A DNA stretch of 61,131 nt from an uncultured Candidatus Saccharibacteria bacterium (GTDB lineage: Bacteria; Patescibacteriota; Minisyncoccia; Minisyncoccales; Staskawiczbacteraceae): assembly GCA_964475855.1 (NCBI GenBank), contig CAYZAV010000004.1, positions 1-61,131 of the forward strand, written 5' to 3'. Below, in pieces: positions 1 through 50,525 of the stretch. Numbering within the stretch: the first letter of the stretch is position 1; every line of letters begins with the position of its first letter. The notes under the pieces were generated by a model. The model saw only the letters and a list, made by a program, of their open reading frames with translations, was not told the origin of the DNA and did no database searches. Both the position numbers and the translations under genes were made by a program.

Positions 1-762
1 CTTTTTTCCAGCTTCCCCTTTGCCTTCCATTTCTATAGCTTGGTTGTTATCAATACCGGCCGGAATAGTTACATTAATAGTTTCGTCACCTTTTACACGG
101 CCTTCGCCTCGGCATACATTGCAGGGCTTTTCGGGTTTCGTTCCCTCTCCTTTGCATTCAGGACAGGTGGCAAAAGCGGTGTAGCTGCCTAAGATGGTGC
201 GCTTTACCTGCTGTACCTGGCCCTGGCCACGGCAGGAAAAACATTCATGTACTTTGGTACCCGGTTCTGCCCCGTTGCCTACACAACGGCTGCAGACGAT
301 TAACTTGTTAAGTGTAATCTGTCGCACAATAGAATTAAGCGTGTCTTCCAAAGCAATTTCCAAATCTACCTGGATGTCTTTGCCTTTTTTTATATCTTTC
401 TTGCGCGTGGCTCGACCACCCCCTCCGCCAAATGAAAAAAAGTTTTCAAAAATATCGCCCAAGTCTTCGGGGTCAAAGTTTTGTCTCCCTTCGGGAGATC
501 CTCCGTAGGGGGACCATGCCCAATTAAAATCTTGCGCGCCAGCACCTGCTCCGCCGCCTTGATCAAACGTACGGCCAAATTGGTCATACTGCTGGCGTTT
601 TTCCTGGTTGCTTAAAACCTGATAAGCTTCGTTTATCTCTTTAAATTTCTTTTCATCTCCGCCTTTATCAGGGTGGTACTTATGAGCCAATTTATGAAAG
701 GCTTTTTTTATTTCGTCTTGGGATGCTTGCTTAGTTACCCCAAGAATTTCGTAATAGTCCAT
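1..762 (-). CDS. dnaJ: Chaperone DnaJ, N-terminal 254 codons (C-terminus runs off the window)
   Basis: My translation from the ATG at 762 gives MDYYEILGV...[15 protein letters not shown] (J domain with HPD), a G-rich linker, then CxxCxGxG zinc-finger repeats. It is absent from the ORF track because no stop lies in the window. Confidence 0.9.
320..331 (+). repeat. TGTCGCACAATA copy 1 (inside dnaJ, antisense to it)
   Basis: Exact 12-mer. Confidence 0.95.
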
Positions 763-764
763 GT

Positions 765-792
765 TTGACAAAGTTATATATTATGCTATACT
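765..792 (+). promoter_or_regulatory. sigma70-like promoter, TTGACA-16 nt-TATACT
   Basis: TTGACA at 765-770 and TATACT at 787-792, upstream of the small + ORF at 823. Confidence 0.5.
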
Positions 793-822
793 TATTGCAG
801 TAATCTTTTCACAGGAGGCCAT

Positions 823-978
823 ATGGCTGAAGAACGTAAAGAATTCGAGAAGACCGCTGAAGAAAAAGCGAAGGAGCTCAAAGAGCTTGAGCGAAGCATT
901 GAAGAGCAAGAGGCTGCAAAACAGCGACAAAGGGATTTTCGACCCGATTACTCAGAGTTCTGGGATCGAGTTTACTAA
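823..978 (+). CDS. Small charged protein (51 aa) antisense-embedded between dnaK and dnaJ
   Basis: AGGAGG sits 4 nt before the ATG. Product MAEERKEFEKTAEEKAKELKELERSIEEQEAAKQRQRDFRPDYSEFWDRVY. It has its own promoter and a downstream hairpin with T-run. Too short for the ORF track. Confidence 0.45.
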   Translation: MAEERKEFEKTAEEKAKELKELERSIEEQEAAKQRQRDFRPDYSEFWDRVY

Positions 979-990
979 TCTCCTTGTTTG

Positions 991-7823: not shown

Positions 7824-8363
7824 TTATTGTTTTTTTAGTAGATTTAAGAATTTTTCTTGTACTTTTTTCAATTTCGGATTTATTACCACTTGGCAGTAGC
7901 CCTGTTGTTTGTTATTTTCGTAGTAGTTTTTATGGTAATCTTCGGCGGGGTAAAATTTTTCTAGCATTGTTACTTCAGTGATAATCGGCGCACCGGCGGT
8001 CGCAGAAGTATTTAATTCTTCAATAAACTTTTTGCATACTATAATTTGCGCCTCGTTGTCGCACAATACAACTGACCGATATTGCGTACCCACATCATTT
8101 CCTTGGCGGTTTAATGTTGTTGGGTCATGTGAAGCAAAAAATATGGTTAGCAGAGTTTCTAGTGGCACAACATCAGCATCATAGTCTATTTTTATCACTT
8201 CGGCGTGGCCGGTATCGCCCCCGGAAATTTGTTCATAGGTTGGATTTGGTGTATCGCCCCCGGCATACCCTGGTTCAACTGAAATTACTCCGCGCAGCAT
8301 GTTAAAAACCGCTTCCGTACACCAAAAACATCCGCCGCCGAAAACAATCGTTTCTTGTTTCAT
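7824..8363 (-). CDS. msrA: Peptide-methionine (S)-S-oxide reductase MsrA
   Basis: GGGCFWC active site from the start MKQETIVFGGGCFWC. The track's longer 8435 start reads through a terminator hairpin. Confidence 0.9.
   Translation of the reverse strand: MKQETIVFGGGCFWCTEAVFNMLRGVISVEPGYAGGDTPNPTYEQISGGDTGHAEVIKIDYDADVVPLETLLTIFFASHDPTTLNRQGNDVGTQYRSVVLCDNEAQIIVCKKFIEELNTSATAGAPIITEVTMLEKFYPAEDYHKNYYENNKQQGYCQVVINPKLKKVQEKFLNLLKKQ
8057..8068 (+). repeat. TGTCGCACAATA copy 2 (inside msrA)
   Basis: Exact 12-mer. Confidence 0.95.
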
Positions 8364-8392
8364 GTGCTTATTATAACCCTGCCCGGCCAAAG

Positions 8393-8420
8393 AAAAAAGG
8401 GAGACCATGATGATCTCCCC
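8393..8420 (-). terminator. Terminator closing the island (left edge)
   Basis: Minus strand reads GGGAGA-TCATCATGG-TCTCCC followed by T6. Confidence 0.6.
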
Positions 8421-8452
8421 TCGTTGATTACCCAAACGGGTTTTTTAAGGTG

Positions 8453-8680
8453 CTATGCATAGCACATTTGTCGGGCGTTGCCCATACGGATTTGAAGGTC
8501 CGTTATCGTTGGTTCAAGTTCCCTCCGTTGCGCTGGCGAGCAGCGTTGCTGTAGGTGCAGCAGTTCCCAATAGACATCCTCCAACTCCTGCAAAGATGCA
8601 CCCCCGAGCATCAACGTTTCTGCCTGGTCAATCAGGCTGGACTCTACCAATCCTCGTTCCCAATGATAAGCCTGCGCCAT
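8453..8680 (-). CDS. Island ORF 8, hypothetical 75 aa
   Basis: GGAGTAAC SD 7 nt before the ATG. Own promoter and terminator. No family recognised. Confidence 0.5.
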   Translation of the reverse strand: MAQAYHWERGLVESSLIDQAETLMLGGASLQELEDVYWELLHLQQRCSPAQRRELEPTITDLQIRMGNARQMCYA

Positions 8681-8741
8681 AGGTTACTCCGTTTCTCATG
8701 ATATCCATGGAATGTACGGTATGGCGGACACCGCAAATCCC

Positions 8742-8765
8742 TTTGAAGGCAAAGTTGCCTTCAAA
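8742..8765. promoter_or_regulatory. Perfect 11+11 palindrome at the predicted transcription start (operator-like)
   Basis: TTTGAAGGCAA-AG-TTGCCTTCAAA, immediately downstream of the -10 at 8769. Confidence 0.45.
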
Positions 8766-8768
8766 AAT

Positions 8769-8796
8769 AGTATATCACTGGCAGTGGTAAATACAA
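8769..8796 (-). promoter_or_regulatory. sigma70-like promoter, TTGTAT-16 nt-TATACT
   Basis: Read on the minus strand upstream of ORF 8453..8680. Confidence 0.4.
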
Positions 8797-8831
8797 TGGC
8801 CGCCTTCGCCAATGCTCCGGCGTGCCGAAGC

Positions 8832-8863
8832 AAAAAAAAGAGGGCAGTCGATTTGACTGCCCT
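8832..8863 (-). terminator. Strong rho-independent terminator
   Basis: AGGGCAGTC-AAATC-GACTGCCCT followed by CT8 on the minus strand. Confidence 0.75.
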
Positions 8864-8909
8864 ATGCCCCTAGCGCTCCCAATAGGAACTTGGGGGAATG
8901 TACTGTTGA

Positions 8910-9257: not shown

Positions 9258-9315
9258 GTCGTGTTACTCCATTGAGGATCCTTGGTGGCTAATCAAGGTT
9301 CCTGGGTTCAGGTAG

Positions 9316-9331
9316 GAGGAAGCGCTTCCTC
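9316..9331. promoter_or_regulatory. Perfect 16-nt palindrome in the leader of ORF 7
   Basis: GAGGAAGCGCTTCCTC. Confidence 0.4.
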
Positions 9332-9561: not shown

Positions 9562-9567
9562 TTGGTT

Positions 9568-12707: not shown

Positions 12708-12719
12708 TGTCGCACAATA
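12708..12719 (+). repeat. TGTCGCACAATA copy 3 (intergenic, at the island/typA-terminator junction)
   Basis: Exact 12-mer. Confidence 0.95.
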
Positions 12720-12789: not shown

Positions 12790-14628
12790 TTACTTCCCTT
12801 TCCGTTCAGCCTGTTTGGCGGCCATTTCGGTCAGATACATTTTACGGATACGCACCGTTTTTGGGGTAATTTCTACCAGTTCATCGTCGCCGATGTATTC
12901 AAGCGCGTCTTCCAGTTCCATGATTTTTGGGGTATTAAAATGTTCGTCGCTGCCTTCACCTTTTGATCGCATGTTGCTAAGCTGTTTGGTTTTGCATACG
13001 TTCACGCGAATGTCTTCGGGTCGGCTGTTTTGGCCTACCACTTGGCCTTCGTAAATGGGTACGGCGTGGTCTAAAAACAGCACTCCCCTATCCTGTACGT
13101 TGATCAAGCCATAGTAATTCGTTGTGCCTGATTCGCTGGCAATGAGCGAGCCGTTAATGCGTTCTCTCCAGTTCCCTGGGTCGGCCTGGTAGTCAAAAAA
13201 GCTGGTGTTCATAATTCCCAAACCTTTGGTATCAGTTAAAAATTCACTACGATAGCCAAACAGCCCTTTGGTCGGGATGATAAATTCCAGAAACACCGTA
13301 TTGTTGTGGGTGCGCATATCTTGTAACTCTCCTTTGCGCCCGCCCAGTTTTTCCATAATAGCGCCTTGGTATTGTTCAGGGACTTCAATAAATGCCTTTT
13401 CATACGGAACCAGGGTTTTGCCTTCAACTTGTCGCACAATAACCTGGGGCCTTGAAACGGAAAATTCATAGCCTTCGCGCCGAAGCCGTTCAATCAAGAT
13501 GGCCAAATGCAGTTCACCACGGCCCGAAACTGTCCAACTTGAGCCTCCTGCGGCATTGGTGGTGTTTTCTTGGACACGCAGCGCCACATCGGTTTCCAAT
13601 TCTTTAAATAATCGTTCACGAATTTGGCGGCTGGTGCAAAATTCCCCCTCTTTTCCGGCAAATGGGCTGTCATTAACCATTAGCATCACTTTTACGGTCG
13701 GCTCTTCTATATTAATAACCGGCAAGGCAATAGGGTTTTCAATATCGGCAATGGTCTCACCAATGGTGGCATCGGGAATTCCGGCAATAGCGGCAATGTC
13801 GCCGGCACCGGCCTCTTCTGCTTCAATTTTTCCAAGCCCCGAAAAGGTCATTAGTGAAGTTAAACGATATTTTTTTTGTACTCCCTCCCGGTTAATCTGC
13901 ATCACTTCCTGGCCGGCTTTGATTGAGCCATTGTAAACACGGCCGATGGCAATGCGGCCTTTGAAATTATCAGCGGTAATAGAGGTGACCAGTAATTGCA
14001 ACGGTTTATTGACGTCAGCAATAGGCGCGGGAATGTACTGGACGATGGCGTCAAATAGTGGAGTAATGCTGTCCATGGTTGCCAAATCAGATACCAATCC
14101 GGCCTTGCCTTCACGTCCCGATGCGTATAAAACCGGGAAATCAAAGGCATTTTCTCCGGCTCCCAATTCCAGAAATAATTCATGGGTAGCTTCCAGGGCC
14201 CATTCGGACCTCGCGCCCGGCTTATCAATTTTATTGATAACAACGATAATTTTGTGGCCCATCTGCAGGGCTTTCTTAAGCACAAAACGGGTTTGGGGCA
14301 TAGGGCCCTCTTTGGCATCAATTAACAGCAAACAGCCGTCTGCCATGTTTAGCACCCGTTCCACTTCCCCGCCGAAATCCGCGTGACCGGGGGTATCTAT
14401 GATATTAATTTTGATATCGCCGTATTGCACTGCAGCATTTTTGGAAAAAATGGTAATACCACGTTCTCTTTCTAATTCATTGCTGTCCATGATCATTTCC
14501 TGGGCCGCTTCTTCCTTTTTCATGTGCGTTTTGCTTTGCCGCAAAAGCGCGTCCACTAGGGTAGTTTTGCCGTGGTCAACGTGAGCGATAATTGCAATAT
14601 TACGAATCAAGCTGTGAATGGGTTGCAT
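12790..14628 (-). CDS. typA: Translational GTPase TypA/BipA
   Basis: IRNIAIIAHVDHGKTTL, DTPGHADFGGEV, NKIDK. 612 aa. Confidence 0.95.
   Translation of the reverse strand: MQPIHSLIRNIAIIAHVDHGKTTLVDALLRQSKTHMKKEEAAQEMIMDSNELERERGITIFSKNAAVQYGDIKINIIDTPGHADFGGEVERVLNMADGCLLLIDAKEGPMPQTRFVLKKALQMGHKIIVVINKIDKPGARSEWALEATHELFLELGAGENAFDFPVLYASGREGKAGLVSDLATMDSITPLFDAIVQYIPAPIADVNKPLQLLVTSITADNFKGRIAIGRVYNGSIKAGQEVMQINREGVQKKYRLTSLMTFSGLGKIEAEEAGAGDIAAIAGIPDATIGETIADIENPIALPVINIEEPTVKVMLMVNDSPFAGKEGEFCTSRQIRERLFKELETDVALRVQENTTNAAGGSSWTVSGRGELHLAILIERLRREGYEFSVSRPQVIVRQVEGKTLVPYEKAFIEVPEQYQGAIMEKLGGRKGELQDMRTHNNTVFLEFIIPTKGLFGYRSEFLTDTKGLGIMNTSFFDYQADPGNWRERINGSLIASESGTTNYYGLINVQDRGVLFLDHAVPIYEGQVVGQNSRPEDIRVNVCKTKQLSNMRSKGEGSDEHFNTPKIMELEDALEYIGDDELVEITPKTVRIRKMYLTEMAAKQAERKGK
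13430..13441 (+). repeat. TGTCGCACAATA copy 4 (inside typA)
   Basis: Exact 12-mer. Confidence 0.95.
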
Positions 14629-15430: not shown

Positions 15431-15442
15431 TGTCGCACAATA
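15431..15442 (+). repeat. TGTCGCACAATA copy 5 (intergenic, next to the STAS-2 terminator)
   Basis: Exact 12-mer. Confidence 0.95.
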
Positions 15443-15477: not shown

Positions 15478-15843
15478 TTAATTGAACACAGCGAGTCCGC
15501 CAATGAGATTCTGCGAATCGCAGTTGAACAGTTTATTGAGCCGAGTGACTTCGAACACCTCGAACACATCTTCATTGATGGCACAGAAGACCAGCTTGCC
15601 GCCGGCATCGTTGACCAATCTTTGCAGGGTGATGAACTTTCCCAGCCCGGCGGAGCTGAAATATTCCACGTTTCCCCAGTCGACCAGGAGTTTCTTTTTC
15701 CCTTGGTCGGCAAGGCTGAAGAGCTCCGCCCCCATCTGGCTAATCACGTCATCAGTTACAATTTTTTTGACTTTGAACCTGACATGAGTGATGTCGGTTT
15801 CGGGAATGTCTTCATACTCAAAGATCTGGATCGGGTTGGCCAT
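15478..15843 (-). CDS. STAS-domain protein, copy 2 (tandem paralogue)
   Basis: Start MANPIQIFEYED. The roughly 85-nt upstream region (15851-15935) duplicates 15301-15385, including TGCTATAAT. Confidence 0.75.
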   Translation of the reverse strand: MANPIQIFEYEDIPETDITHVRFKVKKIVTDDVISQMGAELFSLADQGKKKLLVDWGNVEYFSSAGLGKFITLQRLVNDAGGKLVFCAINEDVFEVFEVTRLNKLFNCDSQNLIGGLAVFN

Positions 15844-15960
15844 GACAGGCTTCCTTTCTATGGAATTGGGAAAGAACGGACAATAGTTTTCAAAATTATA
15901 GCACATTTTTGTAAAAAAACAACCCACCTCATCGGCGGGTTGTTGCAGACATGAAATATC

Positions 15961-28150: not shown

Positions 28151-28546
28151 TTATACCACGTTTTTAGATATTGTTTGGTGTAGCCCAAAGGTATTGCCTT
28201 CGGTGTCCAAAAAATATCCCTGCCAGGCCATATCCATAATCTTAAATTTTGCCATGGCCACTTTTCCGCCTGCCGTTTCAATTTTTGCGGCAATGTCGTC
28301 AAAATCATCCACCTGCACGGTACAGACAAACGCGTTGGTACCCTGCTGTGGCGCTGGGGACGGGCATGGGCGTTTGAGTAATCCCCCATTAATGCCTTTT
28401 TCAGTACTCTCTTTTGGCGCGGTCATTATTCCCCAGTACCCGTCCATCCATTTTGGGAATTCCCAACCAAACACGGCGGAATAAAATGCAATAGCCCGTT
28501 CAACGTCATCAACTTGGATTTCAAAATGAGTGATTCTGTTTGGCAT
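28151..28546 (-). CDS. VOC/glyoxalase-family protein
   Basis: ITHFEIQVDD.ERAIAFY..VFGW...GYFLDTEGN.FGLHQ. Confidence 0.8.
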   Translation of the reverse strand: MPNRITHFEIQVDDVERAIAFYSAVFGWEFPKWMDGYWGIMTAPKESTEKGINGGLLKRPCPSPAPQQGTNAFVCTVQVDDFDDIAAKIETAGGKVAMAKFKIMDMAWQGYFLDTEGNTFGLHQTISKNVV

Positions 28547-28601: not shown

Positions 28602-28613
28602 TGTCGCACAATA
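28602..28613 (+). repeat. TGTCGCACAATA copy 6 (intergenic)
   Basis: Exact 12-mer. Confidence 0.95.
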
Positions 28614-28688: not shown

Positions 28689-29186
28689 GTGGCGGAGGAA
28701 AAACCTAAAAACCAGGAAAACTATCGCATTGAATACAAGGAAGTAGCAACTAGTCACCGTTTCTACGTTGGCCTGAGGTTCGTTATCGCCGCATTCACAG
28801 CGACGTTGCAATCAGCGCTGCTGAAACTGTACAGTGATGCACTACAGGCGACTTCACCGCCCGAGGTTTTGCTTTTCGGATATCGGTTTAGCTTGGGAGG
28901 GCATCCAGTTTCCATCGCCGCAGTCGGCTGTATCACTATGCTGGCAATTCTGGTAATGGAAAGAAGGAACATTGACCGATTCAAAGTGATGTTAAAGCGA
29001 GGCAAGGAAGTTGAATTTAATCTCCTTTTGCTTGGTGGTCAATTCAGCCGACTTGGTGAAACCACTGGTCTTGGTCTTTTTACCTATACGTGGAGCCTTG
29101 GAGTCATCTATACTGGGATTGGGGCAATGTGGCTTTGGCTATTGTTCTTCAATCTCGTTGCCCTTTACGAAAGGAACTTCAAATGA
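28689..29186 (+). CDS. Membrane protein, 165 aa, unknown function
   Basis: TTGACA-16-TAAACT promoter (28625 onward). TAAGGAG sits 6 nt before a GTG start. 3-4 TM segments. Confidence 0.55.
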   Translation: MAEEKPKNQENYRIEYKEVATSHRFYVGLRFVIAAFTATLQSALLKLYSDALQATSPPEVLLFGYRFSLGGHPVSIAAVGCITMLAILVMERRNIDRFKVMLKRGKEVEFNLLLLGGQFSRLGETTGLGLFTYTWSLGVIYTGIGAMWLWLLFFNLVALYERNFK

Positions 29187-29388: not shown

Positions 29389-29412
29389 CCGGTTCATACG
29401 AACCGGTTTTTT
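29389..29412 (+). terminator. Terminator CCGGTTC-ATAC-GAACCGG plus T7
   Basis: Read directly. Overlaps the stop of the convergent gene. Confidence 0.7.
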
Positions 29413-30302
29413 TATACTGGAATTGCCGCTCTTAACTTCGGATGACTTCCGATGCAATTATTACAACAAATGACTTTGCGTGACGGCCGTATACTGTCAT
29501 CATTGTAAAACTCTTCGCATTTTGTCGCACAATAAGCGCAGGTACCCACAACTTCGCGGTTTTCTGATTCCGCGACCGGCGTTACCATCCGATTGTCAAA
29601 CACGAACAAACTGCCTTTAAATCGTTTGCCCGGGTATTTTTTAATGTAGGTATGAATACCATCTTTCAGCTGGAAAATATTGGTAAACCCCTCTTTTTTT
29701 AATAATACCGTTGCTTTTTCGCACCTGATTCCACCCGTGCAAACCGCCACCACTTTTTTGTTTTTTAAATGTGATAGTCCTGCAATTTTAGCCGGTAATT
29801 CTTTGAATTTTTGCAGCCCCGGATTTACCGTTTTTTCAAAATATCCGGCCTGGATTTCAAAGTCATTGCGTAAGTCCAATATCACAAAATCATCCTTCGG
29901 CACGCCAGAGCCTTTGGCGTCGGTGGCGCGATACATTTTTTCCAATTGCGTGGCGGTTACTGTAGGCGCCGTATCTTTTTTAATGTTTAACTCCCCCACT
30001 CCCAGCGTTACCACTTCCGGCCGCACTTTTACTTGCAGTTTGGTAAACCCTTTGCCATTGCCAGCACTTTCTTTAATTACAATGTTTTTAAAGATAGAAA
30101 TCTTGCGCAGCGCTTTGATATATTTTTTGATTGCTGTTGTTTCTCCCTCAAATGTGGCATTGACCCCCTCATGCGCCACCAGCATCCGCCCCGTCAAACC
30201 AAAACCAGCAGCAAGCTGTTTATGCATATCCCTAAACTTTTCAGGGTTTTTTATCTTAGTGAATTTGTAAAATAAAATGATGGTAAAACTCTCTTTTTTC
30301 AT
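29412..30302 (-). CDS. trhO: Rhodanese-domain protein of the UPF0176/TrhO (YceA) type
   Basis: HEGVNATFEG, LDLRNDFE...GYF, active-site CTGGIRCEK, C-terminal Cys cluster. Confidence 0.75.
   Translation of the reverse strand: MKKESFTIILFYKFTKIKNPEKFRDMHKQLAAGFGLTGRMLVAHEGVNATFEGETTAIKKYIKALRKISIFKNIVIKESAGNGKGFTKLQVKVRPEVVTLGVGELNIKKDTAPTVTATQLEKMYRATDAKGSGVPKDDFVILDLRNDFEIQAGYFEKTVNPGLQKFKELPAKIAGLSHLKNKKVVAVCTGGIRCEKATVLLKKEGFTNIFQLKDGIHTYIKKYPGKRFKGSLFVFDNRMVTPVAESENREVVGTCAYCATKCEEFYNDDSIRPSRKVICCNNCIGSHPKLRAAIPV
29523..29534 (+). repeat. TGTCGCACAATA copy 7 (inside the trhO-like gene)
   Basis: Exact 12-mer. Confidence 0.95.
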
Positions 30303-32396: not shown

Positions 32397-33344
32397 ATGA
32401 AAAAAGATATTTTCTACGTTACTGTGGCGGCTATGCTTTTTACATTTGCAACAGCTGTGCATGCCAAAACCGATTTGTCTATTTCTGAAACCGATGTCAC
32501 TTTTTCTAAAGAGGATATTCTCAGTGGGGAAACGGTTACGGTATATGCCAGGATTTTCAACATTGGTGACACTAATGTATTTGGTAATGTGGTGTTTTTG
32601 AACAATGGCAAAGAAATATCAGACCCCCAGCCTGTTTCGGTGCGCCCCAATACCTATGATGATGTATTTATCACCTGGAAACCCGATTCAGGAAATTATA
32701 GCATTACGGCAAAAATTATCGGATTAAATCCCCCAGATGACAATGTTAATAATAATTTGACCGTTAAAAAAGAAGTGTTTGTAGATAACGATACCGACCA
32801 TGACGGCATCGGGGATAAAAAAGACACTGATCCCGATAGCGATACGCTAACTATTAGCCAGGAAAAAGCCAAACATACCGACCCACTAAAAGCCGATACC
32901 GATGGAGATGCCGTTAACGATAATATAGATGCGTTTCCCTTAGATAAAAGCAAATGGGGCGATGCTAATACTGCTACTGTTCCAACGGGAAGTGACTCGG
33001 GACAGGTTGCATCTGTACCGGTTGAAACCAGTGAATCGCCAAAAAGCAAATATCAGGCGGTATACGACCAAATACAAAAAGGCATAGAAAGTATTACCCA
33101 ATCAGCACCTGTGCAAACTGTCGCACAATACATTGACAAGGCCACCGGCGGAAAAATTCCCGAAGCGTATAAAGCAGTAACTTCAAAACTAAATTTGGCG
33201 GCTGTGGCAAATAATACCATTGATTATAAAAAACCAGCCGGAGGAATCTTTGAATTGGTTAAAACATATTGGCCCTGGGGCGCGGCTATTTTAGGAGTAT
33301 TATTCTTACTATTTCTATATAAATCCTGGCGTGGCCGAGAGTAA
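32397..33344 (+). CDS. Surface protein: CARDB-like domain, Asp-rich calcium-binding-type repeats, C-terminal anchor
   Basis: Signal peptide. DLSISE..V.F......GETVTVYARIFNIG. DNDTDHDGIGDKKDTDPDSD and DTDGDAVNDNID. Confidence 0.65.
   Translation: MKKDIFYVTVAAMLFTFATAVHAKTDLSISETDVTFSKEDILSGETVTVYARIFNIGDTNVFGNVVFLNNGKEISDPQPVSVRPNTYDDVFITWKPDSGNYSITAKIIGLNPPDDNVNNNLTVKKEVFVDNDTDHDGIGDKKDTDPDSDTLTISQEKAKHTDPLKADTDGDAVNDNIDAFPLDKSKWGDANTATVPTGSDSGQVASVPVETSESPKSKYQAVYDQIQKGIESITQSAPVQTVAQYIDKATGGKIPEAYKAVTSKLNLAAVANNTIDYKKPAGGIFELVKTYWPWGAAILGVLFLLFLYKSWRGRE
33119..33130 (+). repeat. TGTCGCACAATA copy 8 (inside 32397..33344)
   Basis: Exact 12-mer. Confidence 0.95.
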
Positions 33345-35759: not shown

Positions 35760-36416
35760 ATGAAACTATTTCCGGCTGCCATACAGATTCACATCCAAAC
35801 TTTGGAGACTGGTTTGGAAAAAATTAATGAAGAAAAGAACCAATATTTATATGGTTTCATTAAGAAATATTGGCCGCGTCAAATAACCCCCAACCATTTA
35901 AGTTGGGTACGTGTTAGCATTGGACTGCTTTTATTCATTTTATTGTTTAATTTCAGGAATGATAACGGACTTTTTATTTTGCCACTTTTTCTTATTGGTG
36001 CTCTGACCGATTTTCTGGATGGCCCTATTGCCCGCTGCCTGAACATGAAAACCAAGCTGGGCGAAGCCCTGGACCCGGTGGCCGACCGGATATTGCTTAT
36101 TCCTGTTTTTATTTATACTATTATTGATTACCAGGTGCTGCTTTTTTTCATCATTTTCTTTGAAGTAGCCAACGCGTTTTTGGCGCTTATTTCCCAGGGA
36201 AAAAATGTTTTTGAAGGTTCAAATATTTTCGGCAAAACAAAAATGTTTTTACAGTCTGTCGTATTGATCGCCATTTTACTGTTTTGGCCCGGCACACCTA
36301 ATTTATTTTTCATTTCACTGCTATGGGTTTCAGTGGCCTGTATTTTAATAAGCGTAAGTATAAAAATTCTTGCATTAAGGTCATATTACTATGCCAATAG
36401 CCATCCGGGTACATAA
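35760..36416 (+). CDS. CDP-alcohol phosphatidyltransferase family protein
   Basis: DFLDGPIAR....T.LGEALDPVADR motif. Confidence 0.8.
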   Translation: MKLFPAAIQIHIQTLETGLEKINEEKNQYLYGFIKKYWPRQITPNHLSWVRVSIGLLLFILLFNFRNDNGLFILPLFLIGALTDFLDGPIARCLNMKTKLGEALDPVADRILLIPVFIYTIIDYQVLLFFIIFFEVANAFLALISQGKNVFEGSNIFGKTKMFLQSVVLIAILLFWPGTPNLFFISLLWVSVACILISVSIKILALRSYYYANSHPGT

Positions 36417-37806
36417 TACTCTGACCGGGAAAAAAGACATCCTTAAACCTTTGAAAGGAAAGCGAGTGAATTTTTTTGTCTGCGGCCCAACAGTGTATGA
36501 TTTTGCCCACATTGGCCACGCCCGCACGTATGTCATTTTTGATTGCTTTGCGAAATATTTGAAGTTTCGGGGGTTTGATGTATTTTACCTCCAAAATGTT
36601 ACGGATACAGATGACAAAATCATCGCTCGGGCGCGGGAAAAGGGCGTTTTGCCAAAAGATCTAGCAGAAGCTTTTTTGACTGAACATCTAAAAGACATGA
36701 AGTTACTTGGCATTACCAGTGTCAAAAAATATGCCAAAGCAACCAGTCACATCAAAGAAATTATCAGCCAGGTCAAACGGTTAATGGAAAAAGGATACGC
36801 CTATTCCCTGGAAGATGGCATATATTTTGACATCGGCAAATTTAAAAATTATGGCAAGCTTTCCGGGCGCAATGCCCTGCAGGCCGAAGATGCGGTTTCG
36901 CGCATTGATTATAATACCCATAAAAAAAACCGCGGGGATTTTTGCTTATGGAAACTGAATACTGGAGTAGATGGTGAGCCCAGCTGGCCATCTCCCTTTG
37001 GCGGCGGACGCCCAGGGTGGCATATTGAAGACACGGCCATTACCGAAAAATTTTTTGGTGACCAGTATGACATCCATGGCGGCGGCCGAGATTTAATTTT
37101 CCCCCACCACGAAGCGGAAGTTGCTCAAATGGAGGCACTTTCGGGTAAACGCCCTCTGGCTGGAATTTGGATGCACACCGGATTTTTGACTATTAATGAG
37201 CAAAAAATGTCAAAATCTTTGGATAATTCCATAACCATTGATACGTTTTTGAAGCGATATAGCGTCGGGCAATTACGTTTCTGGATTGCCAAAAACCTGT
37301 GGCACTCCCCTATGAACTATTCGGAGTCAACCATGATTGAGATAAAAGCCGGGCTGGAAAAGATGGAAGAGTTTCTACGGAAAATAAAGGCTACAAAAGT
37401 TTCAAAGGTGATAGAAGTGACAAATGTAAAAAAGTTACTGCAAACCGTAAAACAGGATTTTTATGAGGCGTTGGATGATGATTTTAATACGCCAAAAGCA
37501 TTTGGGGTGCTATTTGATTTTATCAAGGAGTCTAATATCCATCTGTCGCACAATAAGATTAGCAAGAAAGAAGCTGTCGACATTTTCAAATTCTTTATGG
37601 AAATAAATATTATTTTTGGTATTTTTGATGGTAAAAACCTAGTGCAGGGCGAGGCGCCACCCGAAATTAAAAATTTATTAAAAGACCGCCAGCAATTCCG
37701 CGACGCAAAAGACTGGCAAAAAGCTGATCAGGTGCGTCAAGAAATAGAAAAATACGGCTACACTGTCCAAGACACCAAAGAAGGCCAGGCGCTGGTTAAA
37801 AAGTAA
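36391..37806 (+). CDS. cysS: Cysteinyl-tRNA synthetase
   Basis: HIGHARTY (HIGH) and KMSKS. 471 aa. Confidence 0.95.
   Translation: MPIAIRVHNTLTGKKDILKPLKGKRVNFFVCGPTVYDFAHIGHARTYVIFDCFAKYLKFRGFDVFYLQNVTDTDDKIIARAREKGVLPKDLAEAFLTEHLKDMKLLGITSVKKYAKATSHIKEIISQVKRLMEKGYAYSLEDGIYFDIGKFKNYGKLSGRNALQAEDAVSRIDYNTHKKNRGDFCLWKLNTGVDGEPSWPSPFGGGRPGWHIEDTAITEKFFGDQYDIHGGGRDLIFPHHEAEVAQMEALSGKRPLAGIWMHTGFLTINEQKMSKSLDNSITIDTFLKRYSVGQLRFWIAKNLWHSPMNYSESTMIEIKAGLEKMEEFLRKIKATKVSKVIEVTNVKKLLQTVKQDFYEALDDDFNTPKAFGVLFDFIKESNIHLSHNKISKKEAVDIFKFFMEINIIFGIFDGKNLVQGEAPPEIKNLLKDRQQFRDAKDWQKADQVRQEIEKYGYTVQDTKEGQALVKK
37544..37555 (+). repeat. TGTCGCACAATA copy 9 (inside cysS)
   Basis: Exact 12-mer. Confidence 0.95.
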
Positions 37807-40151: not shown

Positions 40152-40727
40152 ATGTCTGATAGCATCAAGAAATTGCAACAATTATTATCCCGCTTCCCTA
40201 CTATCGGCAACCGTACTGCCGGGCGGTTTGTGTTTTATTTGATCCGGCAACCCAAAGAAAGCGTTGATGAGTTAATTGCCGCCCTGCAAGAACTCAAAAA
40301 AAATGTAAAACTGTGCGTGGATTGCTTCAACCCATTTGAAAGTGGTGGGGTGTCGGAGACCCCAATGCTTTGTGAAATATGTCAGTCCCCTGCCCGCAAT
40401 AAACAGTTATTGTGTATTATAGAAAAAGAAGCTGATTTGCTGACTATTGAGGCTACTAAGCGCTACACCGGGCTATATTTCATTCTGGCGAGCACTCGTT
40501 TTACTGAATTGAAAAACCGGATTACCAAAGGGAATTTCACCGAAATTATTATTGCTTTAAACCCGACCCCCGAAGGCCGTACCGCCGCCGCCCTGGTTAT
40601 GCGAGAAATCGGCCCCTTGTCGCACAATAGAAAAATAACCCGCTTAGCCCAAGGCCTGCCTGTTGGCGGCGAACTGGAATACGTAGACGAAGAAACCCTG
40701 GAAAGTGCATTTGAAGGAAGGAAATAA
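40152..40727 (+). CDS. recR: Recombination protein RecR
   Basis: LPTIGNRTAGRF, Cys4 zinc finger (C..C...C..C), Toprim region. Confidence 0.9.
   Translation: MSDSIKKLQQLLSRFPTIGNRTAGRFVFYLIRQPKESVDELIAALQELKKNVKLCVDCFNPFESGGVSETPMLCEICQSPARNKQLLCIIEKEADLLTIEATKRYTGLYFILASTRFTELKNRITKGNFTEIIIALNPTPEGRTAAALVMREIGPLSHNRKITRLAQGLPVGGELEYVDEETLESAFEGRK
40618..40629 (+). repeat. TGTCGCACAATA copy 10 (inside recR)
   Basis: Exact 12-mer. Confidence 0.95.
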
Positions 40728-42525: not shown

Positions 42526-42613
42526 AATCGTAGTGTGTTGTGGTTTATTGATTATTATTTGTTGCTAATTTCTTATACTACACTATTCCATTAATCCTGT
42601 CAAGCCTTTTGGG

Positions 42614-43312
42614 CTAAAACCGGGGTTCATCCAATTGTGCCTGGACCGCAATTCGTTTGTAATTCTTACCTGGCGGCCAGCAACTTACCAGGGTTAGGAT
42701 GTTTGTTTTTTGGCTCAAACTGGTGGTTTGCAGTTCTTGACCTTTCTGTAAAATGTCGGTAGTTATTACCGTATAGCTGTATTGGCGATTTTCAAAATAT
42801 ACTATAATTTTATCGCCGGGTTTTAAGTTGGTCAGGTTGCTGAATACCCAATCGTGCTTGATGTGAGGCCAGTTTGGCGGTGCGGAGTGCCCTAATATGA
42901 CGTTTTCTCCTGCTTGTCCGGGATAAACGGAACCAGGGTAATACACTACCCCTTCATCTAAGTCTTTCATCAGGTCTTTTTCGATGACACTGGTACCGAT
43001 TACCAACGGCGTAACCAGGCCGAGGCTTGGAATTTCCAGTGAATTGGTTTTTTGAGAATATGGAAATTCACGGATTTTTGCTTGAATTGGCGGGGTTATT
43101 GCGTTTGCTTTTGCCAATTTTTCCAAATGACTGTCAGTGACGGTAATGAGAGAGCTGTTCTCGTAAGGGTTGAAAAAGTCATATGCCAGCGCCGAAACCA
43201 CCCGATAGTTAAACATCCAGGAAACTTCGCCCCAGTTAAACAGTAAAAAGCCGGCCAAGTAAAGGCCTACGAAAATTTTAGTAAATTGCCTCTGCTTTTC
43301 ATTGATTTCCAT
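42614..43312 (-). CDS. Sortase-family transpeptidase
   Basis: N-terminal TM, His in ILGHSAPP, catalytic Cys in TLVSCWPP, Arg in YKRIAV. Confidence 0.85.
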   Translation of the reverse strand: MEINEKQRQFTKIFVGLYLAGFLLFNWGEVSWMFNYRVVSALAYDFFNPYENSSLITVTDSHLEKLAKANAITPPIQAKIREFPYSQKTNSLEIPSLGLVTPLVIGTSVIEKDLMKDLDEGVVYYPGSVYPGQAGENVILGHSAPPNWPHIKHDWVFSNLTNLKPGDKIIVYFENRQYSYTVITTDILQKGQELQTTSLSQKTNILTLVSCWPPGKNYKRIAVQAQLDEPRF

Positions 43313-43413
43313 ATACCTTAATTATATCATACTATAAAGTCTTGTCAATAGCGCGTGGGCATATTTGCCGGTAAACCAAAAAGCACCCCATAAGGAGTGC
43401 TTTTTGTCGGTGA

Positions 43414-45399: not shown

Positions 45400-45551
45400 A
45401 GTCGTGATACGTTAGGTTAATAAGATTAACAGATTATTCCTTATACTAGTGTTTAAAAAATCCGTGTCAATATGGACAACTACAATATCGCATTGTTGCA
45501 TGTTGATTGTTAATTTTTCATTAAAAAAGCCGCACAAGGCGGCAGGAGGTG

Positions 45552-46370
45552 TTATTTATAATAAGCCCTGTCTTTATACTGTAGATAGAGGTACTTCATT
45601 TGTTGTCGTTGGTTTAAGGAAATTTCCCCTTCAAGCATGGCATTCATTTTTGTCACCTGCATATCAATGTCACCATCAGGGTCAAGGTAAAGTTTCCAAC
45701 CCTCTGAAGTGGTAATGATTAATGGATTGGACACGGCAACTTCCATAATCCCAATTCCAAAATTTTCCTTCAGGGCATTCCCTACTGCTTTGGTGGCAGC
45801 AATGAGATTTGGCTTTGTCACCAAGCTGCCAAGTACCAGATTCATGTCGCCCGATTCATATAGGGTTGGTAAATTTTCCTCTAGCGCCACCACTTTTTCA
45901 AAAATAATCCCAGTGTCATCAATATAAAAACATTCACTGCCGCCAAGGCCAAAGCAAAATACGGCAAAAGGCTCTCGCTCCACGATTTCAATGGTAATCC
46001 CTTGCGGCCAAGCTTTATGGACATGCACATCCTTAACCAATACGAAGGCATCAGCAATCAATTCTTCCAGCTTTGATGTATTTTCGATAATTATACTTTC
46101 AGATGTCAGTGTAAGTAATCCCGCCGGAAACAAGTTTTTTTTGATTTGCTTGTAGGCAATATTGTCAATTTGGGCGGTGGTTATTTTCCGGTTACCGGAA
46201 ATTTGGATATTTTCAATTTGTAGTTGCGGTAAAAAAAATATGAAGTAGGTCGCAATACTGAGCATTAAAGTAAAAAACAGGGCAAACCAAAAAATTCGAT
46301 GTTGCCAAAACCGTTTTTTTGGCTTTAGTCGTTTGATTTTGGGATGGATGTGTTTTTTCCGGTAAGACAT
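45552..46370 (-). CDS. ftsQ: Cell division protein FtsQ-like (POTRA)
   Basis: Basic N-terminus, TM, IENIQISGNRKITTAQI POTRA start. Confidence 0.7.
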   Translation of the reverse strand: MSYRKKHIHPKIKRLKPKKRFWQHRIFWFALFFTLMLSIATYFIFFLPQLQIENIQISGNRKITTAQIDNIAYKQIKKNLFPAGLLTLTSESIIIENTSKLEELIADAFVLVKDVHVHKAWPQGITIEIVEREPFAVFCFGLGGSECFYIDDTGIIFEKVVALEENLPTLYESGDMNLVLGSLVTKPNLIAATKAVGNALKENFGIGIMEVAVSNPLIITTSEGWKLYLDPDGDIDMQVTKMNAMLEGEISLNQRQQMKYLYLQYKDRAYYK

Positions 46371-46371
46371 A

Positions 46372-47382
46372 TTACAAACCGCGCTTCCACTTACGGGTCA
46401 ATTCTATTATATAATTTATCCAGTATTTTTGCGAAATAATATAATCCTGGGTTTTTACGTATTCATCATGGTAACCGCCAAAACCCATTTTAAATAACGT
46501 CGGGCCGGCGTAGGGGTGTTTTGGGTTGGCAGCCGGATTCGCATATCCCCAAAAGTCATAGGTTTTGGCCCCGCGTTTTTTAGCTTCTTTTATTGCCTCC
46601 CATTGCAACAAGTACGAAACCGGGATTTTTTTGTATTCTGGCAGCAATGCTGCGTGGTGGTAAAAACCAACTCCACTCCAAAAAATTTCAAACGAAGTGG
46701 CAATGTATTCACCCTTATACTTGGCAAAAAACAATGAAATAGTGTTGTCGGGTAGAAATGCGTTGAATTCTTTTTTTAAATAGTTCAGCGAAAACGGGGT
46801 GAATTTTTGCAGTTTTGCCACAGGCGTATGGAGTCGATAAAAAATGTTCATATCCTGCACATCCGAGCTTTTGATAATTTCTATATCTTTGTTGTGCTCG
46901 GCCTGTTTTATCAAATAACGTGTGCTTTTTCGCATATCGCGCAACAATTCTTCTTCTGATTTTGAAATATCTAGCTTCCAGCTTGATTCTGGATGATAAT
47001 GTAACGGCCCCTGTCGAAACTTTAAATCTTTAAATATTTTGACATTTACATCCTCTCGTTTAGCGATTGGGCTAACTCTAATAAAATCCACTTTCTCTAT
47101 TTTCGCCAACCCTTTTAGTTTTTCTAATAAAACGGGTAAAATGTTCAGATCCCCCACTGGCCCATGGGGAACCAATAAAAAGCTTCCCCTTTTAGAAATA
47201 ACTTTGACAGTCAAAGCCGCGGCAATCTGCTGGCCGTTCTCAAAAACCCCAAATCGCCAGACTTTATTCCCCATAGAAGCGTGGAAATCCCCCCAATTCC
47301 AAGATTGCAAAAACGTCTTGCGCGGACATTTGGCCAAAAAATCTTCCCATATTTTTTTGTCAGAAATTTCTCTTAATTCCAT
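46372..47382 (-). CDS. FemAB-family peptidoglycan interpeptide-bridge peptidyltransferase
   Basis: FLQSWNWGDF start and the two-GNAT-lobe length class (336 aa). Confidence 0.75.
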   Translation of the reverse strand: MELREISDKKIWEDFLAKCPRKTFLQSWNWGDFHASMGNKVWRFGVFENGQQIAAALTVKVISKRGSFLLVPHGPVGDLNILPVLLEKLKGLAKIEKVDFIRVSPIAKREDVNVKIFKDLKFRQGPLHYHPESSWKLDISKSEEELLRDMRKSTRYLIKQAEHNKDIEIIKSSDVQDMNIFYRLHTPVAKLQKFTPFSLNYLKKEFNAFLPDNTISLFFAKYKGEYIATSFEIFWSGVGFYHHAALLPEYKKIPVSYLLQWEAIKEAKKRGAKTYDFWGYANPAANPKHPYAGPTLFKMGFGGYHDEYVKTQDYIISQKYWINYIIELTRKWKRGL

Positions 47383-48575
47383 TGTTTTAGAAAATTAACA
47401 ATTCGTTTTGCGTCGTCTATGGAAATATTGATGTGGGTGGGTAAATTTAGCGCTGTTTTGGCCAGACGTTCGGCATTTGGGCACCTGCCGGGAACATATT
47501 TCATTTCTTCCAGTTTTGTATCAAACGGGTCAATGGGGCTACGATACCAATCGCCAAGGAGTATATTTTGCTGGTGCCAGGCTGCGTATAGTATTTCGTG
47601 TGCTTGTTTATGCTGGACGGCAAAACGTAAAAAGATATTATTTTCTTTGCGGGGCAATATAAATTTTGTGCCCGTCAATTCCTGATAATAAAACTCTGCT
47701 ATTTTTTTACGGTGCGCGTTAAACGTTTCCAATTTTTTGAACTGGTTTAAAGCCATGGCCGCCAATGCGTTTGGCAGTGCTTTTGGAAAATAATCAGGCC
47801 GCTGTCCCCTTTTTTCTTTAAAGCTTACCGCTTTTGATAAAATATGTAGCCACTGCGAAACTACTAAAAATACTTTTCCAAGATTGATAAAATTGTATAA
47901 CGGTAAAATAATAAAATATAGTAAAGTAGGATGCAAAATTTGCTGCTTTATCCAAGCCATGCCTGGCATGCCAAATTCTTTTTGTAGTGCCTGCAGTTTT
48001 TTTCCCAATTCATCGTCATTTGTTACTGCCATGCCACCATATACGCAAGAAATCACTTTGTCTCTTGAAAAACTAAAAAACCCGGCTTTGCCAAAAGTGC
48101 CAACTTTTTTACCGTTAATTTCTGCGCCCAGCGCGTGCGCACAGTCTTCAATTACTTGCTTATTGAGGGCTTTTTCATTGGGTAGGCCAAAAGTGTGTTG
48201 AACAATATCAACTCCGCTGACAGCATTAAAATCATTGTCGCAGTCAACGTATACTGGATTTAACCCTGCCCATAAAATAGGGTTTGCCACCGCATTGCAA
48301 GTAAAAGCTTGTATTTTTACGTCACTGCCTTTTGGTAACTCCAATGCCCTTAAAATGGCGTACATACTTGATCGACCCGAATTAAACGAAACAGCATATT
48401 TTACGCCAAGATATTTTGCAAATTCTTCTTCCAATTTTTTGACAGCGGGCGCAGACTTGTGCCCCGCCCATTTCCATGGTTGAAAAAGCAGTTTCAACGC
48501 CAAAACCACATCATCTTTTTGGACATTTGGAGAAAGCGATATGGAGACTGGTTTAAACGGTAAAAACATTGACAA
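47373..48575 (-). CDS. DegT/DnrJ/EryC1/StrS-family aminotransferase-like protein
   Basis: FSFSRDK (PLP Lys context), VIEDCAHALGA. Confidence 0.75.
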   Translation of the reverse strand: MSMFLPFKPVSISLSPNVQKDDVVLALKLLFQPWKWAGHKSAPAVKKLEEEFAKYLGVKYAVSFNSGRSSMYAILRALELPKGSDVKIQAFTCNAVANPILWAGLNPVYVDCDNDFNAVSGVDIVQHTFGLPNEKALNKQVIEDCAHALGAEINGKKVGTFGKAGFFSFSRDKVISCVYGGMAVTNDDELGKKLQALQKEFGMPGMAWIKQQILHPTLLYFIILPLYNFINLGKVFLVVSQWLHILSKAVSFKEKRGQRPDYFPKALPNALAAMALNQFKKLETFNAHRKKIAEFYYQELTGTKFILPRKENNIFLRFAVQHKQAHEILYAAWHQQNILLGDWYRSPIDPFDTKLEEMKYVPGRCPNAERLAKTALNLPTHINISIDDAKRIVNFLKQWN

Positions 48576-48634
48576 ACATTTTAATTAAATTATAATTCTA
48601 TTAATGGTTTTTTGCTTACACCAAGGAGAGTATC

Positions 48635-48889
48635 ATGTCAACACTCGCGGATGTGCAAAAACATTGTCAATCGCATCACAATAATTTGATGAATGGCCAA
48701 CGTAATAACGAGGCCAAGGACAAATGCTGGTCAAGACTTTTTCAGGCATTGGACGAAGAGCATGGTCCTTACACTAAGCGAGAAAAGCTTCCTCTTGAAA
48801 CTCCACTTGGTGACCAATCCGAAATAGCTTTTCAAGAGCTTAAAAAACTCAACATCGCACCTTCACAATCTATTGCTCTGAAAACTTAG
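48635..48889 (+). CDS. Hypothetical 84-aa protein
   Basis: TTGACA-16-TATAAT promoter (48583 onward) and AAGGAG SD. Confidence 0.5.
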   Translation: MSTLADVQKHCQSHHNNLMNGQRNNEAKDKCWSRLFQALDEEHGPYTKREKLPLETPLGDQSEIAFQELKKLNIAPSQSIALKT

Positions 48890-48896
48890 CCACCAG

Positions 48897-50525
48897 CTAG
48901 GTTTTTTTATTGCCGGCGATCAATAGTCCGATCAATTCTCCCGGAACTCGTCCTTCTAGTAACACGGTATCATCTTTTTTGCAGCAGACAGTGATATGGT
49001 GAAAAATTTCCTTTGAATTTTCAGAAAATATAATATTTTTTTCCGGCATCCCGGCATCCATGGCCCCTTTTTTAATTTGGTCAAACTGGTCGCGGGTGGA
49101 AATAATGGCTAAATCGCAAACCTGCGCGATTTTCTTACCGATTTCGTAATGCGCCTGTGCTGATTTTGGACCAAGCTCAATCAGGCATGGCATGACAATT
49201 GCTTTTTTACCAGGGAAAATTGAAAGATAATCCAAATCGGCCATTACGCCATCCGGATTTGATGAATATGAAGAATCTATAATTTGTATGCCATGCGTGC
49301 CAATTTTCAGTGTCATACCGCCTTGCTCTTGCCGGATGTTTTTGCAAGCCAAAGAAATTTGCTCAAGTGTCATGCCTAATTCACGCGCCACCAATATAGC
49401 CCCTAGTAAATTTTGTACTTGTTGGCGGCCCAGCACATTGGCGCTAATATGCATCAGCTCTTTTTGAAAATAGTGAACAATAAACGAAATCCCCTCTTTT
49501 TTCACTTCTACCTCCTCTGCCCAAATGTCGGCGTCTAGGATTTGTTTATGTTCCGTATAAATTTTCTTTTTACCGGTAAACTTTTTGTACAAATTCAGAC
49601 AATGCTGGTTTTCGCCATTTACGGCCAGCCAACCGTTTTCCGGCAACGCTACGGCTAATTCACGCCCACCTTCGGCTGAAAGTAAATTTTCTAAATTCCC
49701 AAATAGCGCCAAATGCTGTTCGTTCACCCCGGTTACCACTCCAATTTGTGGTCGCACCATGTCGCACAATAACTTTATACCGCCTTTTTGATATGCCCCC
49801 ATTTCCACAATAAATATTTCGTGTCCGGGCATAATGTCTTCCAAAATAGTTTGAGCAATGCCCATTTCGGAATTTCTATGGTCTTTCGTAGCAATAACTT
49901 TGTACTTTTCAGATAATATGGTTGTTAAAAATTCCTTGGTTGATGTTTTTCCATAGCTACCAGTAATGCCAATGACCATTAACTTCTTAAAGCCCGCTAA
50001 TTTTTTCCTGGCTTTTTCCAAAATACTTCGCCGGCCCATGACGAATAACGGTTGCACAAGTAAAACAATAAGGGTAATGATAGCAGGAACCAATAAATCA
50101 GCCATCAGCAATGCTTTGGCAAGATATTCACCCGAAGTTTCGTATACTGCTAACCCGATGGCAACCAAGCTGAATGTGCTTATTGATACCAAAGCCAATA
50201 GTATTGTTTTGAGTGTTTGTTTTGGCGCTAAATACTGCCCGGAAGGCAAGGCGCGCATCCAAAGTCCGGCTTCAATAATATACATAACTAATAATCCATA
50301 CAACGCGATGCGTGAAAATCCTGCCACCAAAAGTACGAGCACCAACATTTTTGCCGCGTAGAGCGGATTAAAAAATATTTTTTTGCCTTTGTGAGTCCTG
50401 AAGTGATCAATGAAACGCGGAATGTGATATTCTTTTAATTGCCATACATACAGCCAAAAAAGGGCATTTTTTAACGTCCGTATCAGCCACAAAAAAAGTA
50501 ACAGGTTGGTTAAAAAAGCTATCAT
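48897..50525 (-). CDS. Mur-ligase (MurF-like) fused to a ~170-aa N-terminal polytopic membrane domain
   Basis: ITGSYGKTSTKEFL P-loop and the Mur ligase middle and C-terminal domains. 4-5 TM segments precede it. Confidence 0.75.
   Translation of the reverse strand: MIAFLTNLLLFLWLIRTLKNALFWLYVWQLKEYHIPRFIDHFRTHKGKKIFFNPLYAAKMLVLVLLVAGFSRIALYGLLVMYIIEAGLWMRALPSGQYLAPKQTLKTILLALVSISTFSLVAIGLAVYETSGEYLAKALLMADLLVPAIITLIVLLVQPLFVMGRRSILEKARKKLAGFKKLMVIGITGSYGKTSTKEFLTTILSEKYKVIATKDHRNSEMGIAQTILEDIMPGHEIFIVEMGAYQKGGIKLLCDMVRPQIGVVTGVNEQHLALFGNLENLLSAEGGRELAVALPENGWLAVNGENQHCLNLYKKFTGKKKIYTEHKQILDADIWAEEVEVKKEGISFIVHYFQKELMHISANVLGRQQVQNLLGAILVARELGMTLEQISLACKNIRQEQGGMTLKIGTHGIQIIDSSYSSNPDGVMADLDYLSIFPGKKAIVMPCLIELGPKSAQAHYEIGKKIAQVCDLAIISTRDQFDQIKKGAMDAGMPEKNIIFSENSKEIFHHITVCCKKDDTVLLEGRVPGELIGLLIAGNKKT
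49760..49771 (+). repeat. TGTCGCACAATA copy 11 (inside the Mur-ligase gene)
   Basis: Exact 12-mer. Confidence 0.95.

Follow-up and report, generated by a model that had tools for sequence, protein, structure and literature searches.

Results

The word and its copies in the window

The DNA analysed here, hereafter the window, was a stretch of 61,131 nt (contig CAYZAV010000004.1, from an uncultured member of the Patescibacteriota) that carried, among others, the genes dnaJ, msrA, typA, cysS and recR and a gene for a Mur ligase. Scattered over it, the 12-nt word TGTCGCACAATA was found in 11 exact copies on the + strand and in none on the - strand. The coordinates in Table 1 and below follow the window numbering. 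The initial annotation had listed 11 positions, all on the + strand and without a reverse-complement copy; every one was exact, and the lack of a reverse copy was borne out over the whole window.

The number of copies was, as had also been claimed, far above chance. Dinucleotide-preserving shuffles of the window gave a mean of 0.01 copies, and Markov models of order 0-4, with the copies masked or unmasked, predicted 0.002-0.02 copies per strand, compared with the 11:0 recorded when both orientations were counted. The enrichment was ~3000-fold. No one-mismatch variants were present in the window, and the two-mismatch forms were at the chance level (3 against 5.3 expected). The sub-word CGCACAATA occurred 12 times against 11 for the full word, and sub-words of 9-11 nt were almost confined to it. 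Since they were so scarce elsewhere, it was concluded that the unit was the entire 12-mer. Its density was one copy per 5.5-7 kb in this genome and approximately one per 13 kb in the relatives described below.

Coding sequences held eight of the 11 copies, with both coding strands and all frames represented; the other three were intergenic (12708, 15431 and 28602). The peptides assigned to the coding copies in the initial annotation were correct: IVRQ in dnaJ and typA, (L/V)LCD in msrA and the Mur ligase gene, YCAT in the TrhO-like gene, LSHN in cysS and recR, and VAQY in 32397..33344. The preceding base was T or C in 10 of the 11 copies and the following base was A or G in 9, so that the weak pyrimidine-before and purine-after preference noted earlier was real; beyond it, the flanks were unrelated and did not align. 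When the flanks of the relatives' copies were pooled, they were T-rich at -2 and -1 and read R-A-A at +1 to +3, which gave a footprint of 12 bp plus ~3 bp on each side. No inverted pairs of the word were found, there being no reverse copy either in the window or in the relatives' loci.

It was considered whether the copies stemmed from the core of a mobile or miniature repeat, from an artefact of assembly or adapters, or from a peptide motif held in common. Nothing spoke for such a source beyond the repetition itself, and its probability was regarded as negligible. A mobile-repeat core was rejected because the flanks did not align, and a 12-nt in-frame insertion or an artefact because orthologous sites had the same length and the word was present in independent assemblies (ENA, Logan, NCBI and JGI projects). 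Ordinary codons had been replaced without added length, and the word was read in all six frames. The earlier view that it was not the core of a longer mobile repeat was therefore upheld. The same observations separated the word from known dispersed repeats. Repetitive extragenic palindromic (REP) sequences and their mosaic elements (BIME), miniature inverted-repeat transposable elements (MITEs) and the cyanobacterial highly iterated palindrome (HIP1) are likewise short sequences repeated many times per genome. However, REP sequences and MITEs are mobile elements of greater length that can be aligned, form hairpins or carry terminal repeats, are mostly intergenic and represent insertions when compared with empty sites, whereas the word lay mostly in genes, lacked alignable flanks and stood at orthologous sites of equal length with substituted bases. 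HIP1 is a palindromic 8-mer without polarity, while the word is not palindromic.

Table 1. Copies of the 12-nt word in the window
Copy	Position	Strand (relation to gene)	Observations
dnaJ	320..331	+ (gene on -, antisense)	codes IVRQ; exact word at the same site in relative L003 (MHOU01)
msrA	8057..8068	+ (gene 7824..8435 on -, antisense)	codes VLCD
intergenic, 3' of typA	12708..12719	+	between 11-bp-stem palindrome 12723-12750 and a -35/-10-like site
typA	13430..13441	+ (gene 12790..14628 on -, antisense)	conserved VIVRQ segment; no insertion
intergenic	15431..15442	+	adjoins A6 run and imperfect hairpin; 3' of STAS-domain gene 15478..15927 (-)
intergenic	28602..28613	+	between divergent genes 28151..28546 (-) and 28689..29186 (+)
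rhodanese/UPF0176 (TrhO-like)	29523..29534	+ (gene 29412..30302 on -, antisense)	codes YCAT
orf315	33119..33130	+ (open reading frame 32397..33344 on +, sense)	codes VAQY
cysS	37544..37555	+ (gene 36391..37806 on +, sense)	codes LSHN; relatives have LLDKN-type residues
recR	40618..40629	+ (sense)	codes LSHN in variable C-terminal linker
Mur ligase	49760..49771	+ (gene 48897..50525 on -, antisense)	codes LLCD

Occurrence in the same chromosome and in related genomes

TypA, DnaB, PBP2 and other proteins of the window were also encoded on the ENA metagenome contig ERZ27247820 k141_502662 (403,851 bp), in which the window corresponded to approximately bases 122,546-183,676 in the same orientation. 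The host was nearest to metagenome-assembled genomes (MAGs) of Candidatus Staskawiczbacteria (Parcubacteria/Paceibacteria), members of the candidate phyla radiation (CPR), and its TypA was 85% identical to that of MHOU01. When the flanks from the same contig were added, 12 copies on the + strand and 0 on the - strand were counted in 85.5 contiguous kb, the twelfth being at the window-equivalent position 68655.

The initial annotation had suggested that the word be sought in related genomes, and it recurred in dozens of metagenome and MAG contigs of relatives, on one strand throughout. In 80 related metagenome contigs selected by dnaB (855 kb, DnaB 68-92% identical), the strand of dnaB, equivalent to the + strand of the window, carried 33 exact copies and 31 one-mismatch copies, and the other strand carried none (64:0). 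Two-mismatch forms were split 31:23, as expected by chance. The commonest variant in this set was TGTCGCATAATA with 13 copies, and the consensus was accordingly written as TGTCGCAYAATA, with a C and a T dialect. Among 67 genome contigs selected by typA (938 kb), 13 matches with at most one mismatch were found, all of them opposite to typA and thus on the equivalent of the window + strand (13:0). They were confined to the closest relatives, mostly with TypA identity of at least 76%, and no matches were obtained in the more distant CPR genomes of this set. The overall strand split was 89:0 (12 in this genome, 64 in the dnaB set and 13 in the typA set). The 57 matches to the C/T variants represented 39 sites with unrelated flanks; therefore, they were not a single inherited site counted repeatedly.

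A de novo search for further polar words in the relatives' 20-kb loci was defeated by high noise, and a scan of viral contigs with TTGTCGCACAATAA yielded chance-like single matches only. The sole double viral match (5383 and 5953 in IMG/VR contig L250) fell in an internal repeat of a large Hint-like protein (...PALSHNK); it resembles the word by chance and has no relation to the CPR signal.

Strand polarity

The confinement to one strand described for the window thus held across the whole clade (12:0, 64:0 and 13:0), which is evidence against an uptake sequence of the classical, orientation-neutral kind. Of the relatives' 41 coding copies, 40 were antisense to the gene that held them. It was considered that the polarity might be a by-product of coding constraint and gene-strand bias. 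This was rejected, because antisense copies were absent from the 138 kb of the relatives' genes that lie on the word strand (30% of the coding sequence), compared with ~17 expected at the density of the other genes, and because intergenic copies were all on one strand (16/16 in the relatives and 3/3 in the window). Three copies in sense orientation, those in orf315, cysS and recR, were present in this genome. One sense frame yields TAR when the next base is the usual purine, which partly accounts for the rarity of sense copies; the base after the 33119 copy was C, so that a TAA or TAG stop codon was avoided in 32397..33344. The polarity is tied to the chromosome strand and not to the direction of transcription.

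Approximately 70-75% of the coding sequence and the rRNA operon lay on the strand opposite to the word, and the four-fold degenerate sites of the relatives showed a gene-direction-independent GC skew of -0.057 ± 0.008 on the word strand. Taken together, the gene-strand bias, the orientation of the rRNA operon and the relatives' GC skew suggested that the word strand is the lagging strand. The leading-strand form would then probably be TATTRTGCGACA; the form given in the initial annotation, TATTGTGCGACA, agreed with the gene-strand bias and the rRNA operon orientation. L286, a locus of one relative, had all of its genes on the other strand; its single one-mismatch match was also flipped and was again opposite to the genes. 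This fits a replication-linked rule, for one variant only.

Gain and retention of copies

The comparison of orthologous sites showed how the copies were formed. The word in typA sat on the conserved codons GTT ATT GTG CGA CAA (VIVRQ); at the same codons, relative L003 had the exact word and relatives L004-L006 had the one-off form ATTATGCGACA (ATT ATG CGA CA). The copies in dnaJ and msrA were each common to a single relative, the msrA site being of the T dialect in L060 and without the word in L003, L005 and L008. The copies in cysS and recR lay in variable protein segments. The word was absent in ~40 relatives at the orthologous site of cysS, and in all relatives at that of recR. The cysS copy is thus a gain specific to this lineage that altered amino acids, the local CysS peptide having changed from the LLDKN type to HLSHN. 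The LLCD segment of the Mur ligase had word-compatible codons in 6 of the 7 LLCD-bearing relatives, although the proteins were ~55% identical and codon usage predicted 0.044 per lineage.

These alignments showed that point substitutions had created the copies at their present sites, at times despite conservation of the protein, and that the copies were then held, being retained at otherwise saturated synonymous sites. Substitution in place followed by retention indicated that the pressure acts on the DNA word. The initial claim of a constraint on DNA rather than on protein was thus sustained by the use of both coding strands and all frames, by in-place substitution and by the saturated synonymous sites that were kept.

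Point substitution would also be expected if the word were a non-functional by-product of one-strand, sequence-specific biased repair or mutation, similar to very-short-patch (VSP) repair. Biased repair can inflate particular words, as VSP repair does in E. coli. Nevertheless, such an origin was considered very improbable. No repair system with 12-bp specificity is known, word-compatible codons were kept across ~55%-identical orthologues, and the strict polarity persisted over deep divergence (DnaB 68% identity). The kept codons and the persistent polarity amount to a persistent directional pressure equivalent to function. The mobile-element, artefact and by-product explanations were thus essentially excluded.

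Word-free blocks and neighbouring features

The G+C-rich island that the initial annotation had described as free of the word was found at ~8.5-12.2 kb. The block 8500-12200 had a G+C content of 0.49-0.52 compared with ~0.44, contained small open reading frames (ORFs) without a Pfam match, and carried no copies, while copies flanked it at 8057 and 12708. This block was probably acquired. Leftward of the window, 16.5 kb (L282 1-16500; window-equivalent -16524..0) had no copies on either strand. This stretch encoded a 564-aa large serine recombinase (Resolvase and Zn_ribbon_recom domains), PAS-HisKA and response-regulator genes and fn3/PG-binding proteins, included a low-GC part (0.35-0.40), and is probably accessory DNA. 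Gene orientation in L282 converged on dnaJ at about window position -400. Within the window, 19007-27642 and 40819-48575 encoded very large SpaA/TIG-like proteins, a sortase with CLIPPER-domain surface proteins and FemAB-type genes, and had no copy of the word.

The intergenic copies at 12708 and 15431 had been described as directly following terminator hairpins. A palindrome did adjoin the 12708 copy, and an A6 run with an imperfect stem followed the 15431 copy, but neither was called by a terminator scan. A perfect promoter-like site, TTGACA-17-TATAAT, directly adjoined the 12708 copy on the - strand (12693-12665). Two neighbouring STAS-domain genes had identical stretches of ~39 nt upstream and internally (15358/15911 and 15199/15757), indicative of a duplication at this locus. 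The same ending, G-TAA-AAAAACAACC and then a hairpin, was seen in orf315 and cysS on the + strand (33341 and 37803), a common stop/terminator context. At the right end of the window, positions 60787-61131 comprised the 5S gene and the 3' end of the 23S gene; just beyond it, an ORF for a LAGLIDADG homing endonuclease (L070 5336-5955) in the rRNA operon region suggests an intron in the 23S rRNA gene.

Regions of the origin and of the type IV secretion system

A tblastn search for DnaA with a B. subtilis sequence as the query gave no match, and searches for ComM and VirB4 orthologues found none on the 404-kb contig. Regions of four relatives, 79 kb in total, were available for comparison. Three of them (L288, L290 and L292) covered ComM-KsgA and a type IV secretion system (T4SS), and the fourth (L294, MHOT01000012.1) extended from the T4SS via jag-yidC-rnpA-rpmH to dnaA. 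The T4SS is usually near dnaA in Paceibacteria (PMC12102498); a chromosomal T4SS without a relaxase was conserved in this clade and adjoined dnaA. A long run of + strand genes (rpsO, pnp, comM, ksgA and the T4SS cluster) led toward the jag-yidC-rnpA-rpmH|dnaA junction in L294 (158-17734), and was also seen in L288, L290 and L292. This run would be head-on to a fork from a classical origin at the rpmH|dnaA junction.

Discussion

A proposed directionally read polar signal

It was tentatively proposed that TGTCGCAYAATA is a directionally read, Chi-like or KOPS-like (FtsK orienting polar sequence) signal of the Staskawiczbacteria-type CPR clade that is selectively maintained, a proposal held with somewhat less than even confidence. 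Three traits fit this class of motifs: polarity strictly by chromosome strand, no regard for gene direction, and copies spaced a few kilobases apart. The leading strand would read 5'-TATTRTGCGACA-3' and would point from the origin to the terminus, and the word would be read directionally by a machine tracking along DNA. It might act like Chi, as a 'self' tag by which a helicase-nuclease coming in from a broken fork is tamed, or, alternatively, as a KOPS-like guide for an FtsK-type pump. A long recognition sequence of at least 12 bp would make accidental copies in foreign DNA essentially impossible.

Like the word, Chi is a dispersed non-mobile word with single-strand polarity, situated mostly in core genes at one per few kilobases, and the word spacing of ~5.5-7 kb is close to that of Chi in E. 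coli. Chi marks self DNA and acts only when met from one side, as the word would. Chi is oriented with replication, changes strand at the origin and terminus, and is recognised as ssDNA by RecC or AddB; KOPS are bound by the winged helix of FtsK gamma, reach a skew of at least 90% near dif and converge on it. KOPS and SpoIIIE recognition sequences (SRS) share with the word a strong strand skew regardless of gene direction. As with these motifs, copies of the word may be more numerous away from the origin, given that the 79 kb of origin-proximal DNA of the four relatives had none. Among dispersed polar motifs, a function is known for Chi and KOPS only; those described are 5-8 nt long, few-fold over-represented and 75-91% skewed (PMC3384302). 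The density of the word, one per 5-13 kb, was within the KOPS range of one per 2-22 kb (PMC3384302). The differences were also clear. Chi motifs are 5-8 nt, ~75% skewed and few-fold enriched, and KOPS are purine-rich or G-rich 7-8-mers with a skew of 0.8-0.9, whereas the word had an invariant 12-nt core of mixed composition and a skew of 100% wherever it was seen.

Several observations weighed against the proposal of a polar signal. The word is at least 12 nt long and ~3000-fold enriched, compared with 5-8 nt and few-fold for Chi and KOPS, and some gains had changed conserved residues, which is more like the molecular drive of uptake sequences. In this genome, the GC skew at four-fold degenerate sites (GC3) had no replication component (0.009 ± 0.018), and the corresponding AT3 skew was opposite in direction, with T over A on the word strand. 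As a proxy for replication the strand skew is weak, being inconsistent between this genome and the relatives. A dnaA gene, a DnaA-box cluster and a dif-like site were all absent from this genome's 85 kb and from the first 147 loci. The 79 kb of the four relatives had no matches with at most one mismatch, where ~6 were expected at the 0.075 matches per kb of the dnaB set; the word is either missing from these lineages or thinly spread around the origin. Finally, no FtsK or AddAB/RecBCD gene was seen in the loci examined, in a limited search for which the FtsK query was an E. coli sequence. The cumulative GC skew is one-directional in some CPR (PMC7143001), so that the absence of a strand switch alone would not disprove a link to replication.

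A possible uptake sequence with a strand rule

The length and the ~3000-fold enrichment of the word were nearer to DNA uptake sequences (DUS) and uptake signal sequences (USS) than to Chi or KOPS, and a hybrid is possible. It was considered that the word might be a DUS/USS-like uptake or transformation sequence, which the conserved competence machinery of CPR would propagate by molecular drive under an added strand rule. Import might, for instance, be limited to the strand that bears the word, with integration only where this strand can anneal to the lagging-strand template. This explanation was rated unlikely, even though many hallmarks of DUS/USS were present: a 12-bp invariant core with biased flanks, a clade-wide over-representation (11 copies against 0.002-0.02 expected in the window), gains that overrode amino-acid conservation, depletion in accessory and island blocks, clade restriction and a C/T dialect. 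The DUS of Neisseriaceae and the USS of Pasteurellaceae resemble the word in length (AT-DUS is 12 nt), in an exact core with biased flanks, in extreme over-representation, lineage dialects and island depletion, in accommodation within genes at the cost of amino-acid changes, and in the competence genes of their hosts. Such sequences are words of 9-12 nt that are over-represented hundreds- to thousands-fold in one lineage, and DNA that bears them is preferentially taken up via a specific receptor. CPR bacteria share conserved com genes and type IV pili, and natural transformability has been described for Saccharibacteria (PMC10633639). The position of the word on the inferred lagging strand is also what the strand-rule model predicts.

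On the other hand, the 89:0 split sets the word apart from DUS/USS, every known one of which is, to our knowledge, orientation-neutral genome-wide. These sequences are equally frequent on both strands (12:0, 64:0 and 13:0 here), occur at ~1 per kb and often form inverted pairs in terminators, while the word was one-stranded and unpaired and its density was 5-15 times below that in Neisseria or Haemophilus. Their hosts are not Patescibacteria, and an uptake bias is not known from any CPR bacterium. In addition, the strand rule rests on two unproven assumptions.

A possible asymmetric site of another protein

The word could also be an asymmetric binding or nicking site of some other protein linked to replication or DNA transfer, which was judged distinctly unlikely. 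The candidates were a polar fork-barrier array of the Ter/Tus type, Xer-type half-sites, priming or restart sites, and dispersed oriT-like nicks for the relaxase-less T4SS of Patescibacteria. A footprint of 12 bp plus ~3 bp on each side would suit a monomeric sequence-specific DNA-binding protein, and the relaxase-less conserved chromosomal T4SS adjoins dnaA in the clade. The T dialect TGTCGCATAATA (e.g., L096 17788 and L100 6164) shares CGCATAAT in 8 of 8 positions with the XerC arm of the E. coli dif site, GGTGCGCATAATG (post hoc p ~0.003-0.05). However, ~2 Mb of sequence yielded neither a complete dif-like site composed of the word nor a copy in reverse, and Ter sites or Xer half-sites number a handful per genome rather than one per 5 kb. 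Most copies also lacked an adjoining hairpin of the kind usual at HUH relaxase or Rep sites, and the asymmetric-site explanation would be one of pure analogy.

Implications

In the full-text literature no paper was found that treats the word as a motif, and none on uptake, Chi or KOPS sequences in CPR. By its sequence properties, the word would be a hybrid of uptake-sequence and polar-motif traits not previously reported together. It may even be the first signal found in the CPR that marks 'self-DNA' in a sequence-specific manner, either as a strictly strand-polar uptake/recombination sequence or as a Chi-like tag of 12 bp or more, although this was thought somewhat unlikely. If true, either version would represent a class of mechanism not previously described. 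In the uptake/recombination version, the imported strand would have to match the lagging strand. In the Chi-like version, nucleotide-scavenging epibionts could shred foreign DNA and spare their own chromosome.

The word offers a handle for orienting replichores and checking MAG assemblies in the clade, for flagging islands and foreign DNA, which lack it, and for finding the reader protein through phylogenetic co-variation with the C/T dialect. It also allows one to ask whether uptake-sequence and polar-architecture features, so far seen separately, can coincide. The CPR/Patescibacteria make up a large and mostly uncultured share of bacterial diversity, in which chromosome organisation, repair and exchange are almost unstudied, and a word that is thousands-fold enriched, one-stranded and conserved in a clade points to a conserved sequence-reading machine in these bacteria.

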